Positions 39 to 59,357 of a stretch of 64,000 bases of DNA are shown here, in pieces. The translations under genes and the position numbers were made by a program. The stretch is from Acidobacteriota bacterium (GTDB lineage Bacteria; Acidobacteriota; UBA890; WLXD01): NCBI GenBank assembly GCA_965205505.1, contig CBDBHB010000009.1:2880001-2944000 (forward strand). The letters are read 5' to 3'. Under the pieces are notes generated by a model, which did not search any database, was not told where the DNA came from, and saw nothing but the letters and a program-made list of their open reading frames with translations. Position 1 is the stretch's first letter. Each line of letters begins with the position of its first letter.

Positions 39-1127
39 ATGAGGAATGCAAGCGAGGTACGTTCCTACTTCCTGGGCAACTGGCGAGAGGTCGTCCCCGA
101 AATTCTGGTAACCGGCGTGCGCGTCGGGACCGCGCCCGACGACCAAAGCATGATCGAGGTGGAGCTTCTCGGTCAGGCCGGTGCGATCCGCAGACTTCTG
201 TACCTCCCGCTGGCCTCGGGCGAGCCTCGTCAGCTGCGCGGATTGTTGCCCCGACTGCGTCGAATCGCCGCCAAGCCGGGCACCGGGGCCGGGCTCATCG
301 TGCCGCATATGGGGGCGGCCGGCGCGCGTCTGTGTCGAGAAGCGGGCATCGGGTATCTCGATTGCTCCGGTAACGCGTATTTGCGGTTCAACAACGTCTT
401 CGTACAGATCATTGGCAACCGGAATCGCTTCACGCAGCGTAAGCAGATCCGCACGTTGTTTCACGACAAGGCCACGATCCCGCTCCGCATCATGATGCAG
501 CGGCCGGGTGATTGGCTCACCACACGCGAGATTGCTGAACATGGTGATCTGAGCCTCGGCTGGGTTTCGCAGATCCTCCAGCAGATGGCCGCGGATGGCT
601 ACATCGAGCGCCAGCGTGGTGGCGGCTCGAGGCTAGTACGGCCGCAGCGGTTGCTGACCGACTGGCTCGCCGAGTACGCCTTCGAGACGAACGAGGTGTT
701 TCCCTACCAGTTGCGTGACAAGGATCCCGAGGCTGCGCTGCACCGTCTCCGGACGGTAGACGCAGACCTGTCGGATCGCTACGCCCTGACGCTCGAGTCG
801 GCCGTACATGCCCTGCAGTTGAAGCCACACCAGCGGCGACTGCCCTTCGAACTACACGTGTACGTTCCCGATCTCAACGAAGACCTGGAGAAGACGCTGG
901 ACTCCTGGCGTCGGGTGCTGGGTCTTCGCCCGGCCGGTCATGGTGCCAACTGTTTTCTCGTAAAGCCGGCGTATCGGCATGCCGTGTTCTTCGACACACA
1001 GGCAAGCCAGGGTCTGCGGACCGTCTCGGATCTTCAGCTATACCTCGACCTGTATCATTCGCCAGGAGAGGGTCGCGTGCACGCCGATAACTCGGTGGCG
1101 TCGCGACTGCCCTTCGAGGTGGGCTGA
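39..1127 (+). CDS. AbiEi-like (type IV TA antitoxin / DUF2186-like) winged-helix protein
   Basis: Central wHTH (TTREIAEHGDLSLGWVSQILQQMAADGYIER), following 'LLTDW' motif and C-terminal 'VSDLQLYLDL...GEG' typical of AbiEi_2-like proteins. Confidence 0.6.
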   Translation: MRNASEVRSYFLGNWREVVPEILVTGVRVGTAPDDQSMIEVELLGQAGAIRRLLYLPLASGEPRQLRGLLPRLRRIAAKPGTGAGLIVPHMGAAGARLCREAGIGYLDCSGNAYLRFNNVFVQIIGNRNRFTQRKQIRTLFHDKATIPLRIMMQRPGDWLTTREIAEHGDLSLGWVSQILQQMAADGYIERQRGGGSRLVRPQRLLTDWLAEYAFETNEVFPYQLRDKDPEAALHRLRTVDADLSDRYALTLESAVHALQLKPHQRRLPFELHVYVPDLNEDLEKTLDSWRRVLGLRPAGHGANCFLVKPAYRHAVFFDTQASQGLRTVSDLQLYLDLYHSPGEGRVHADNSVASRLPFEVG

Positions 1128-1159
1128 GGCCTTTCTGGTGTCACGAACGGCACCTTGAC

Positions 1160-1362
1160 CACGACCTGCTGGGGCATCGTCGACGAGGCGCAACGCCGAT
1201 ATCGCCCGCAACTGCCCGTCTGTCCGCAGGATGGCGGCGAAATCGGCCCGTCTGCGGCGTTGCTCCTCCTCTAAGATGGGCAAACATCGTCTCGTCGTCG
1301 CGCCTGGCATCCGGACCCATTTCGCCACCACGATATGCAACGATCATCTGTTACAGGCCACT
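1160..1362 (-). repeat. Truncated copy of the composite inverted-repeat element at 58806-59357 (family A terminus, plus the junction with the nested family B element)
   Basis: Near-identical reverse complement of about 58808-59010; ends in ...GCAACGATCATCTGTTACAGGCCACT. Confidence 0.9.
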
Positions 1363-1375
1363 TCTATGAGAAGGC

Positions 1376-1622
1376 GTAGTTCGGTCAAGGGCAATGTGGT
1401 GCCCAGCGAAGAATCGATCTGCACGCCATGCTCCTATTCGCACTCTGGTGGACGAGGATTCAGGTCGTCCGGTGCATTCTGGGGTCCGTCCCGATTCGAG
1501 GCGCTGCAATCTAGCTGCCGAGCTCGAAGCTCGTAGTGACCTTCGCAGTCGCCCGGACCGGGCGGTCAGATCGATAACCGTTGGGTCGCGTCGCCCTACC
1601 GACCTCCTGGTTGCGGGTTAGT
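1376..1622 (-). ncRNA. Putative bridge RNA / seekRNA of the IS1111-type element
   Basis: Non-coding region downstream of the recombinase with a stem / internal loop / hairpin; loop segments GGUCACUA and GCAGCUAG match both strands of the insertion target. Confidence 0.65.
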
Positions 1623-2668
1623 TCATGCTGCTGAAACCTCTACAGGTGCGCGCAACGGTTCGTACTCGTCTCCACTCAGCCACAGTCGGTGCAGCACAAC
1701 GGCGAGCTTACGGGCGACAGCAACTGCTGCCTTTTTGTTGCCATGAGGACCACCGCGTCCGGCCAGCTTGAGCCCCCAGCGTCTGAGCTCAGTATCGGGC
1801 CCGAAGGGGCCCAGGATGTAATGCGCCGAGCCCACCAACAGGCGTCGGAGCATTTTGTCGCCCGCCTTGGTTATTCGTAGCGCAGGGTCCTTGTCCCCCG
1901 ACTGCCGTTTCTTCGGTCTCAGTCCCAGGTACGGGCCCACGGCTCTGGAGGTATTGAACCGCTCCGGCTCCTCGAGCGTCAGCACATACGCCAGTGCGGT
2001 CAGAGCTCCGACCCCGGCCACTTGCTGGAGCTGCTGTGTCTCCGGGTATCGCCCCTGGCACAGCTGCACGATCTGACGCTCGTATTGCTGGATGTTGCCC
2101 GTCAGCATGGCGATCGTTTCAAGCACCGGCTCGAGCGCTCCCTTGAGCCGCTCCGGTATGTGCTCTGGCGCGGTGCGCGCGAACGCCGGCGTCGAGCACC
2201 TGGGAATACGACAACCGGCCGACTTGACCGCACCACGCACATGGCTCACCAACTGCGTGGGCTCTTTACCAGAGCATCTCGGCTCCGAATCACGGCTAGA
2301 TCCGCTCGCGCTTGTCTGCCTCGATGCTGCACCGTCTTAAGCAGCTTTGGGTCCATTCTGCCCACTCGTGCCAGGTGCTCGGCATCCAACCGGTCGGTCT
2401 TGTCGTGCTCGCCATAGATCAGCTTCAGCCGCCTCGGGTTAGCCACCAGCACCTCATGACCCAGTTGCTTCAACTGCTCACTCATCCACGGCGAGTGCGT
2501 TCCAACCTCCAGCACTACTCGAGCGGGCTCCTCGCACCCGAACCGCCTCGCCAGCCCCTCCGGGCTCGTCCTCACCCGCCCTTCCTCCATCACCCTGCCC
2601 TTACTGTCGAGCACGCACATACGGCTGTACCGGTCGCTTACGTCCAGTCCAATCGTTACACTCCTCAT
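1623..2668 (-). pseudogene. IS110 recombinase (DEDD_Tnp_IS110 + Transposase_20), frameshifted near 2260
   Basis: GLDVS, VVLEVG and KTDRLDA (DEDD) in the 2246-2668 frame; 'YLGLRPKKRQSG...ITKAG...AVAVARKL' in the 1623-2252 frame; a single-base shift joins them. Confidence 0.9.
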
Positions 2669-2767
2669 CGGCCAACCTCCTTGGGCTTCGAGCCCGTTAC
2701 GTTTGAAGAAACGTTTGCAGAGCCGTCAGGCTACTGCGTTCAGGAGGTTGGCCTTCTCATCTCATCT

Positions 2768-3914
2768 AGAAGGCGTCCCCAGCGCTGATCCCATGCTCCC
2801 CATTCGTGTGCCGAACAACGAGGGGCTGAAATGCGGTGTGGGGCCTGCATACCATGTCGGCGATTGGCTCAGCATCCCTTCGAACATCTTCGCCCAGTGG
2901 TCGGCGACGCCGAAAGCCATCGCGTACGGAAGGTAGCGCTCGAAGGCGGTCTCGGAAATGCTGAGGGCCTTGAAGCGGTTGGCCTCGGTACGGCCGAGGA
3001 ATTCCTCGAAGCCCTTCAGTGCAACGAAGGTCTCACGCCCCTTCACGGTTCGGGCCGGCATGAACGGCGCGAATACGCCAATGGCCAGCGCCACAAACGG
3101 GGCGGCGAAGGCCATCGCCGGCTTCTGCAGGGAGACGGCGAGCAGGATCATCGGCAACAGCGACACAACCGCTATGGCAATCCAGGTCGTGCGTGCGCGA
3201 TCAGGTCGCGAACGAAACAGACCACGCTTGGTCATGCTCCCGTAAAGCTCGTTCTTGATGCCGCTAATGCGGGTGTAGAAAGGCCCTCGAGCACCGACTT
3301 CTCGTAGGAACGTAGCGCCTCGTCGGGCAGCTTCAACCGCTGGAAGGTGGTCTTCGTGGTATCGCCGAGGTCCATGGCGGTTGGCGGAGGCCTTCAGGAA
3401 GGCTGATCTGCGCCGTTGCCGACAGAATCGGCACCGTCCAACCCATGCCGGTCACATTCCAATAGAGCTGGTCGTGTGACTCGAAGCCCTCTTCCGTGTC
3501 CGGAAATCGCAGCGCCCGACCAACGCGGTAGCGCAGGACGACGGTTCGAGACGCGTTGTTGGCGTCTGGAACCCAAACTTTGAAGCGAAAGTCGTCGCCC
3601 TCGACGCCGGCCTCGTGGCGTAGGGCGGCCCCGGTCGCCGCGGTGACCGACACAGGCTCCAAGCGGAGCCCGTAGTCAAGTCCCCACGGGGTCTCGTACT
3701 TGATCGGAATGTCTCGATAAATACCGTTGAACGAACCCTCGAAATGAAACGTGAGGCGCTCGGTGACATCGATCTCGCCGCTCTCCAGCACGCGGATGTC
3801 GGCTTCGAAAGACTCGACCCAGTATTGTCGCCCCTGAGCCTCCACGGCGCCCGGTGCGATGTACGAGACAAGCACCATGAGGACTACCGCTGAGGCCGCG
3901 CTCCGCCTACTCAT
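2768..3914 (-). pseudogene. DUF2207-family membrane protein (LemA-associated), fragmented and truncated
   Basis: N-terminal 'VTERLTFHFEGSFNGIYRDIP...LYWNVTG.GW.VPI' and C-terminal 'FERYLPYAMAFGVADHWAKMFE'; split into frames and the Gly-rich tail is missing at the IS junction. Confidence 0.8.
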
Positions 3915-19530: not shown

Positions 19531-19538
19531 GCAGGCCA

Positions 19539-19575
19539 CTAGTGTCCTGAGCTCTGCTCTGTTACCGGCCACTAG
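19539..19575. repeat. Collapsed family A element (termini only)
   Basis: CTAGTGTCCTGAG...CTGTTACCGGCCACTAG. Confidence 0.65.
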
Positions 19576-58805: not shown

Positions 58806-59357
58806 CTAGTGGCCTGTAACAGATGATCGTTGCGTATCGTGGTGGTGAAATGGGTCCGGATGCCAGGCGCGACGACGAGAGGATGTTTGCCCATCTTGGA
58901 GGAGGAGCAACGCCGCAGACGGGCTGATTTCGCCGCCATCCTGCGGACAGATGGGCAGTTGCGGGCGATATCGGCGTTGCGCCTCGTCGACGATGCCCCA
59001 GCAGGTCGTGATGGAAGTGTGATGGGTCTGGTTACGCCGCCAAGGGCGCAGATCCAAGGCGCCGCGTCGCCGGCGATGCCCGTGCGCATCGTCTAGGAGC
59101 GGCAACGCCGGAGACGCGCCCTTGGCGGCGTCACCCGTAGGGCAAGTGGGAGTCACGGGCGATGGCGGCGTCTCTCCTCCTCGACGATGGCTCCAGCATC
59201 GCCTCATCGTCGATCCTTGCCCTAGCCCGTGAGTCCCACTTGCCAGACCCACCACACTTCCATCACGGCCTGCTAGCATCGCCTTCCTCGCCGCGCCTTG
59301 ATCTCACCCGCAAATCCCATCTGCGATATGCAACGATCATCTGTTACAGGCCACTAG
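58806..59357. mobile_element. Family A MITE-like element with a nested family B element
   Basis: 34-bp TIRs CTAGTGGCCTGTAACAGATGATCGTTGCGTATCG / CGATATGCAACGATCATCTGTTACAGGCCACTAG (1 mismatch). Confidence 0.92.
58998..59276. mobile_element. Nested family B MITE-like element
   Basis: TIRs CCAGCAGGTCGTGATGGAAGTGTGATGGGTCTGG / CCAGACCCACCACACTTCCATCACGGCCTGCTAG, similar to 37155-37433. Confidence 0.88.

Follow-up and report, generated by a model that had tools for sequence, protein, structure and literature searches.

Analysis of a 64,000-nucleotide stretch of an Acidobacteriota genome (GenBank assembly GCA_965205505.1, contig CBDBHB010000009.1, positions 2,880,001 to 2,944,000; hereafter the window) identified at window positions 1363-2767 a 1405-bp insertion sequence (IS) of the IS1111 type, belonging to the IS110 family with its RNA-guided DEDD transposases. 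The IS lies within the terminus of a miniature inverted-repeat transposable element (MITE), and comparison of its copies, their targets and related elements makes it very probable that it moves by RNA-guided, site-specific recombination, with a 10-mer at the MITE tips, AGG(C/T)CACT^AG, as the target (here and below, the caret marks the point of insertion). The data support this 10-mer, AGGYCACT^AG, as the recognised unit, with which a guide RNA encoded by the element itself would pair; the MITE increases the number of targets and is not recognised as such. Because the 10-mer is the end of an older, CTAG-inserting MITE family, MITE termini supply most of the landing sites.

Ends, copies and empty sites

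The ends of the IS and the two parts of its target in the window are the following, the minus strand being that of the transposase.

1363..2767, minus strand: IS1111-type insertion sequence, with 27 full-length copies having identical ends
1363..1365, minus strand: 3-nt right-end extension, AGA in transposase orientation (GGA or AGA in relatives)
1366..1375, minus strand: right subterminal inverted repeat, with 10 bp here; 18 of the 27 copies have an 11-bp form (GGCCTTCTCAT)
2669..2767, minus strand: left end with the 99-nt 5' leader, containing an internal long-range stem, GGCCAACCTCC/GGAGGTTGGCC
2750-2760, minus strand: left subterminal repeat, part of the left end
2761-2767, minus strand: 7-nt left-end extension, AGATGAG in transposase orientation, part of the left end
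1355..1362, plus strand: left part of the IS target, AGGCCACT, including the CT core at 1361-1362, invariant in 27/27 paired sites except at position -5 (C in 26, T in 1)
2768..2769, plus strand: AG, which completes the target and is the second half of the CTAG in which the MITE ends

The left junction (1350-1374) reads ...GTTACAGGCCACT^TCTATGAGAAGG, or as a longer stretch ...CTGTTACAGGCCACT^TCTATGAGAAGGCG, and the right junction (2750-2775) reads ...GGCCTTCTCATCTCATCT^AGAAGGCG. A first-pass annotation of this DNA had placed the element exactly in the CTAG terminus of a repeat, and the window letters bear this out: excision of 1363-2767 rejoins GGCCACT to AG and restores GGCCACTAG, which is intact at 59349-59357 and 19567-19575, with further matches at 19534 and, on the minus strand, at 58806. 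These four matches in the window compare with 0.19 expected, and four were reached in 0/100 shuffles. The dinucleotide CT is present at both junctions (1361-1362 and 2766-2767); the duplicated overlap is exactly 2 nt, and the next base differs between target and junction on either side. The subterminal repeat ATGAGAAGGC (1366-1375) pairs with GCCTTCTCAT (2751-2760), the two being 3 nt and 7 nt from the ends, as had also been proposed.

The window's own genome (G000; 5.98 Mb in 9 contigs) was searched with blastn and by pattern counts. The IS gave 33 matching segments, 27 of them full-length and 98.6-99.9% identical, and the patterns detected 31 left and 30 right junctions, all with the identical boundary. 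No copy with other boundaries was found when the ends were compared across the genome, every left junction (31/31) ended in AGG(C/T)CACT, and insertion was site- and orientation-specific at 31/31 junctions. AG directly followed the IS end in 25 of the 27 paired copies. One of the remaining two had AA, and the other (C9:2703637) had an extra CATCT unit before AG, that is, three units and not two in the left-end extension, indicating that the pentanucleotide of the 7-nt extension varies in copy number.

The orthologous locus was fetched from four genomes of the same genus (G001-G004) by means of the right flank. In G004 it reads ...TCCTGACTCAGGCCACTAGAAGGCGCC... (also ...CAGGCCACTAGAAGGCG... and ...CAGGCCACTAGAAGGCGCC), which is the predicted empty site, and therefore the predicted join exists in nature at this locus. 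G002 has ...GCCGGCCACTAGAACGCGCC... and G003 ...CTGTTACAGGCCGCTAGAAGGCGCC..., and G001 is without any repeat at the locus (...TTGGGCTAGAAGGCGCC...; ...GGGCTAGAAGG at window 1362/2768). At E<=1e-40, a search for the transposase gave nothing in the four sister genomes, and of the 41 genomes searched only three others had distant or broken relatives of it. Since the IS was not found in the sister genomes and the MITE is genus-wide, the IS looks like a recent arrival, with ~30 copies in G000 only, that has expanded on pre-existing sites.

Four public runs were compared with the window at the level of contigs; of the runs recorded for this stretch, 0 are RNA runs. In each run 11-16 contigs leave the window at 1362 and continue with AG and diverse sequence, and others leave it at 2769. 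The collapsed IS contig has a word depth 15-47x that of the unique flanks, a ratio that is not a copy number. In runs X9 and X13, an 18-kb contig connects a 21-nt piece that ends at 1362 with sequence resembling 2670-2738 (4 differences); given the shortness of this side, the joint may derive from a repeat, from another organism or, in a related strain, from another deletion derivative of the IS.

The window copy also contains a 9-bp direct repeat, AGAAGGCGT, at 1370-1378 and 2768-2776, and with shifted boundaries this repeat could be read as the target duplication of a DDE-type element. The probability of that reading is close to nil. The repeat exists in the window copy and in no other, its left-hand copy is part of the subterminal repeat common to all copies and to 40 relatives, and AGAAGGCG follows CTAG in 3/4 of the IS-free sister genomes (G002 has AGAACGCG). 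Because of its absence from the other copies and because of the IS-free sister flanks, the 9-bp repeat was ruled out as a target duplication; it is a coincidence.

Target specificity and the MITE

The MITE is represented beside the IS by the following parts.

1158..1362, plus strand: left-truncated MITE copy, ~205 of ~281 bp, whose last two bases, AG, are now at 2768-2769
1329..1362, plus strand: MITE terminal inverted repeat (TIR), CGATATGCAACGATCATCTGTTACAGGCCACT, continued by AG after the IS; the 34-nt TIR is intact at 59324-59357

When 1000-1362 was compared with the genome by blastn, the repeat matches started at 1158-1172 and ended at 1362. Full copies of the MITE are ~281 bp (19 pairs) or ~550 bp (5 pairs) long with 34-nt TIRs, and G000 contains 162 TIR-like matches of this short, non-coding, multi-copy repeat. 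Where G000 has CTAG-MITE-CTAG at 58806-59357, each of the four sister genomes has just one CTAG; therefore, the MITE inserts at CTAG. Both there and at the IS locus, the adjacent minus-strand gene has its TAG stop within this CTAG. Counts of the exact terminus CTGTTACAGGCCACTAG in the sister genomes are 79, 64, 30 and 1 (0 for a control pattern), and more diverged MITE copies are found across the order. A plausible autonomous partner of the family, judging from its ends, is an IS630-family IS at G000:C9:2198454-2199636 (locus L119) with a 381-aa transposase (NF033545 at 273 bits), which is bounded by CTAGTGTCCTGAGTCAG.../...CTCAGGACACTAG and has ~12 of its first 17 terminal bases in common with the MITE TIRs. 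At 19534-19575, two TIR-like termini stand 24 nt apart, both with GGCCACTAG on the plus strand; the first CTAG also starts an inward-facing terminus (CTAGTGTCCTGAGC), forming a minimal TIR pair of ~42 bp, GGCCACTAGTGTCCTGAGCTCTGCTCTGTTACCGGCCACTAG. Comparable mini-palindromes elsewhere in the genome are also used as IS targets.

Across the 31 junctions, conservation is confined to positions -8 to +2, i.e., to the 10-mer AGG(C/T)CACT^AG. The occupancy of the candidate sites in G000 was as follows.

GGCCACT(AG): 30 occupied, 145 empty
GGACACT(AG): 0 occupied, 106 empty (Fisher p=3e-7 vs GGCC)
GGTCACT(AG): 1 occupied, 13 empty
GGCCACTAG with A at -8: 30 occupied, 109 empty
GGCCACTAG without A at -8: 0 occupied, 36 empty (Fisher p=8e-4 vs A at -8)

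The GGACACTAG termini, at which U of the predicted guide would face T, were occupied in 0/106 cases compared with 30/175 (p=3e-7), and sites without A at -8 in 0/36 compared with 30/139 (p=8e-4). The single insertion at GGTCACT is a perfect match to the guide. The guide model would predict this pattern, namely insertion into AGGCCACTAG and AGGTCACTAG and none into AGGACACTAG or into sites with non-A at -8.

By context, the main MITE subfamily accounts for 12 of the 31 insertions and a second subfamily for 6; a further 7 are in short remnants resembling TIRs, and 6 are elsewhere. The first-pass annotation had described the IS as a parasite of the local MITE family, and this description is supported, with a refinement. 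Of the junctions, 25/31 are located in CTAG-associated MITE termini or TIR-like remnants, and the 6/31 insertions outside TIR context share just the 10-mer with the others. In accordance with that, occupancy of the 10-mer was not significantly higher inside TIRs (25/97) than outside (6/43; Fisher p=0.18). Empty AGGCCACTAG sites numbered 72 in TIR context and 37 elsewhere, and ~13 would be expected from base composition.

The same counts bear on another explanation, in which IS and repeat form one composite element, with the left 32-63 nt belonging to the IS, and owe their distribution to joint spread or segmental duplication. Many copies do have 32-63 nt of left flank in common, and the whole flank is shared by C6:11751 and C6:191362 (left) and by C6:424494 and C6:512432 (right). 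We nevertheless regard the composite as highly improbable: 6/31 copies are without TIR context, 145 GGCCACTAG sites are without IS (including 72 in TIR context), sister genomes in which the IS was not found have the MITE in abundance, the orthologous site is present in empty form in sister genomes, and the right flanks are diverse. In the two pairs just named, the one identical flank is 30-45 nt long and the other side is different, which suggests either IS-mediated inversions or rearrangements, or flanks that lie inside other repeats.

The predicted guide RNA

The region downstream of the transposase gene contains the candidate guide RNA (seekRNA or bridge RNA), with the following predicted parts.

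1422..1557, minus strand: conserved core of the predicted seekRNA/bridge RNA, two stems with two internal loops (27-element alignment)
1535..1542, minus strand: predicted target guide, 5' side of loop 1, AGGUCACU, pairing with AGTGGCCT with one G.U wobble
1511..1515, minus strand: predicted target guide on the 3' side of loop 1, GCUAG, which is identical to the left flank (...CT) with the core AG added
1431..1437, minus strand: predicted donor guide, 3' side of loop 2, AUAGGAG, compared with the right end ATAGA plus AG, with one G.T wobble

Here, AGTGGCCT is the right flank plus the core in transposase orientation. Scanning of metagenomes with the transposase gave 80 relatives with 48-71% identity. 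Nine of the 80 loci had partial matches and were excluded, loci with <60 nt upstream or <200 nt downstream were skipped, 12 loci had no inverted repeat of >=9 nt, and ~10 had unrelated repeats; 40 loci with a ATGAGAAGG-type repeat and the window element together made 41 aligned elements. The 40 relatives have the same subterminal repeat and extensions, and their right flanks start with AG in nearly all cases, the rest of the flanks being different. The guide anchors were found in 36/41 elements (41/41 with a looser pattern), and both flanks were long enough for comparison in 35.

The downstream regions align on a common scaffold consisting of GGCGACUGCG, a loop, a hairpin, a loop, AGAUUGCAGCGCC...AUGCACC, a hairpin and GAGUGCGAAUGGAAGC. 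The alignment of 27 elements has 32 invariant columns, and the fold derived from it comprises 14 pairs, with compensatory changes in 6; the outer stem has such changes in 5 pairs. In the 35 relatives, which have other targets, the loop that follows ACUGCG matches the reverse complement of the right flank and core of the same element, and the loop that precedes AGAUUGCAG matches its own left flank plus AG. The longest matches averaged 7.1 nt for the right-flank loop and 6.2 nt for the left-flank loop, compared with 3.4 and 3.2 nt, respectively, in 1072 unrelated pairings. The second loop carries AU(A/G)G(A/G)AG, which tracks the right-end extension plus the core: the 3-nt right-end extension equals the donor-guide triplet in 37/40 elements, and A leads the guide triplet in each of the 6 elements whose end is AGA. 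The conserved target span, -8 to +2, is exactly the span of both guides, and guide pairing predicts the specificity observed in G000. Both deviations of the window element (U opposite G, G opposite T) are wobbles solely for an RNA of transposase sense.

Put together, these features suggest the following course of transposition. In loop 1, AGGUCACU (the complement of AGTGGCCT) and (G)CUAG would together specify AGG(C/T)CACT^AG, and loop 2 would match the element's own right end and the core. The RNA, of transposase sense, would cover 1422-1557 and be ~80-140 nt long. The element has a single 2-nt core, which is CT on the strand of the window and AG in that of the transposase, and would be excised as a circle. 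The complex of RNA and transposase would then pair the circle junction with the target, with strand exchange at the core, so that no true target duplication would arise.

Several observations weigh against such guidance by RNA. Among the contigs of the four public runs there was neither a circle junction (2767 back to 1363; ...CTCATCT^TCTATGAG...) nor an empty allele of the window locus, but contigs drop rare forms, so these absences carry little weight. As many as 109 perfect 10-mers are still unoccupied in G000. The left-end side of the donor loop fits the element's own left end at ~4/8 positions and co-varies imperfectly among the relatives. The main guide pairs with the commonest target through a G.U wobble and not perfectly. 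The 136-nt core folds no better than shuffled sequences (z=0.09; z=-2.1 for the whole non-coding region), and the second stem offers no co-variation evidence because it is invariant. An Rfam scan of 1200-2900 at E<=1 matched no family. Finally, expression, ends and strand of the guide RNA, as well as its transcription and its binding by the transposase, would follow ISEc11, ISKpn4, ISPa11 and IS621 as described in the literature.

The lack of an Rfam match, the unremarkable single-sequence fold and the need for a wobble in guide-target pairing would fit a transposase protein that reads the target directly, the downstream region then being a regulatory or structural element and not a guide RNA. 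This seems very unlikely to us, because in 35 elements the loops track their own flanks while the transposases stay 48-71% identical to that of the window element, and because conservation of the target ends just where complementarity ends. Moreover, dependence on seekRNA has been demonstrated experimentally for members of the IS1111 family (passages on seekRNA in PMC11187229). Guidance by RNA is therefore retained as the preferred explanation.

With a guide RNA directed at the 10-mer, it is possible, though we hold it for doubtful, that the guide targets a sequence existing mainly as a MITE integration junction, in which case the IS would be an RNA-guided hyperparasite of the MITE. AGGCCAC would then be the tip of an IS630-type MITE, and TAG the duplicated part plus the flanking base of CTAG. 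Each transposition of the MITE would make two fresh landing sites, and insertion of the IS would separate the MITE tip from its last two bases, probably immobilising that end. The ~40 guide/target pairs would in that case be a natural data set from an uncharacterised environmental IS1111 clade.

Transposase, related systems and neighbouring genes

The remaining features of the IS are the two parts of the transposase gene and a short box near the right end.

2246..2668, minus strand: N-terminal DEDD/RuvC-like transposase part, 140 aa (PF01548 at 1.3e-15)
1623..2252, minus strand: C-terminal transposase part, 209 aa, out of frame with the N-terminal part (PF02371 at 3.3e-17)
1383..1389, minus strand: CTTGAC(C/A) box, 20 nt from the right end (19 in most relatives)

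The transposase gene of the window copy is split by a 1-bp deletion near 2259; the intact form of the IS is 1406 bp and encodes a 348-aa transposase. The 348-aa gene is uninterrupted in 10 of the 27 full-length copies, an intact one being at G000:C9:1190476-1191881, and broken in 17: one base is missing in the window copy and 3 others, four bases are missing in 11, both losses occur together in one copy, and a different lesion is present in the last. In each of the four public runs, the collapsed contig of the IS contains an additional C after 2259, indicating that the window copy, which is frameshifted and non-autonomous, is a minority form. It should be able to move only if an intact copy supplies the transposase. 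The broken copies fall in two main lineages at many loci, which points either to mobilisation in trans or to gene conversion as the way in which the lesions spread.

With a score of 205.5 bits (cut-off 140), the intact protein belongs to NCBIfam NF033542, 'IS110 family RNA-guided transposase', and the solved IS621 and ISCro4 transposases match weakly in the C-terminal half. Its closest proteins outside G000 are 92% identical and are located on metagenome contigs. A scan of genome contigs with the transposase gave one distant relative with 43% identity. In a plasmid tblastn, proteins were 25-36% identical and mostly labelled just 'IS110 family', with no close named IS among them; the transposase is only distantly related to cultured references, the best plasmid-borne relative having 36% identity. 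About 4.6 kb before the window start, at G000:C9:2875335-2875443, there is a palindromic remnant (~108 bp) of the IS left end, TCTAGATGAGAAGGCCAACCTCC...GGAGGTTGGCCTTCTCATCTCATCT^AG, which has both subterminal repeats and is without transposase gene or guide RNA; it could have arisen by deletion or be a fold-back copy.

The IS1111 group is characterised in PMC11187229 by a list of features that includes subterminal inverted repeats of usually 11-13 bp, and each of the features set out below was present, so the IS1111-type end geometry given in the first-pass annotation is upheld. The domain layout is that of the group (an N-terminal DEDD, RuvC-like part and a C-terminal PF02371 part). The subterminal repeats ATGAGAAGGCC/GGCCTTCTCAT are 11 bp in 18/27 copies and 10 bp in the window copy, and the terminal extensions are asymmetric (AGATGAG, 7 nt, at the left and AGA, 3 nt, at the right, in transposase orientation). 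The non-coding region is 260 nt downstream of the transposase gene compared with 99 nt upstream, and the transposase, at 348 aa, is in the IS1111 range (330-350) and contains GLRPKKRQSG, corresponding to the motif GL-P----S(t)G. There is one target and one orientation, and the 2-nt core alone is common to both junctions, without real target duplication.

A TTGAC box is at a fixed position in 41/41 aligned elements, 5 of them with ATTGAC or ATGGAC, and a promoter scan found no sigma-70-like promoter in the linear copy. For these two reasons, and in line with the junction promoter described for the IS110 and IS1111 families (PMC11187229), the CTTGAC(C/A) box is likely to be the -35 element of a promoter completed at the circle junction.

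IS4321 and IS5075 reportedly enter the TIRs of Tn21-family transposons at a single position and always in the same orientation. They resemble the present IS in belonging to the IS1111 family, in having subterminal inverted repeats and in hitting the TIR of another transposon; here, however, the victim is a non-autonomous MITE and not a resistance transposon, and the target sequence is another one. In Coxiella burnetii, 20/21 IS1111 copies are in QMITE2, at a repetitive extragenic palindrome (GTAG REP) within it (as reported in PMC5896051). There too, a multi-copy MITE supplies the targets of an IS1111-family element. In contrast, the MITE found here is of the CTAG-insertion type, probably IS630-type, and in another host phylum, and the target sits right at the TIR tip, including the MITE's own CTAG site, and not at an internal palindrome.

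With regard to the RNA, seekRNAs of the IS1111 family have segments complementary to both target strands that overlap at the core, the complement of the top strand coming first (PMC11187229), and the bridge RNA of IS621 has a two-loop layout with a target loop and a donor loop (PMC11208160). The candidate RNA has the same segment order and two-loop layout as the seekRNAs of ISEc11, ISKpn4 and ISPa11 and the IS621 bridge RNA, here as read from sequence alone; it differs in that its scaffold matched no Rfam model and its left-end donor guide is weak. According to the portions of PMC12288879 and PMC11187229 that treat them, ISPpu9, ISPpu10, ISPa11 and IS621 use REP sequences as landing pads. Unlike the target described here, which is made or multiplied by another mobile element, REPs are not transposon ends.

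In the literature searched, there was no description of this IS, or of an IS110/IS1111 element at the ends of IS630-type MITEs; the IS is an unnamed element whose probable mode of action is known from the IS1111/QMITE2 and seekRNA/bridge-RNA precedents, and the current understanding of the mechanism is unchanged. For annotation, the exact ends, target and predicted guide are fixed for an IS that, at ~30 copies in 6 Mb, fragments assemblies of the lineage. The system would be a clear example from nature of an IS that, guided by RNA, has multiplied within a single species on the abundant ends of an older, genus-wide MITE. The ATGAGAAGGCC-repeat clade, with its 40 metagenomic relatives and at least a dozen targets, offers what appear to be naturally reprogrammed triplets of guide, target and donor, including tolerated wobbles and a short second guide of 4-5 nt.

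As to the neighbourhood of the IS, the adjoining gene for a DUF2207 membrane protein (2762-3235 and 3333-3914, minus strand) looks damaged: the C-terminal open reading frame (ORF) stops inside the IS and the N-terminal ORF is separate. After CTAGAAGGCG, G000 is without a Gly-rich tail of ~110 nt that is present in 4/4 sister genomes. Contigs of the public runs have 46 extra letters at 3280/3281 (3/4 runs) and 443 at 3368/3369 (4/4 runs), so the window may have deletions or assembly gaps at these points. On the other side, the product of 39-1127 (plus strand) has 362 aa; its middle part weakly matches a winged helix of MarR/Rrf2 type, it has no other recognised domain, and its gene is convergent with the MITE and the IS.

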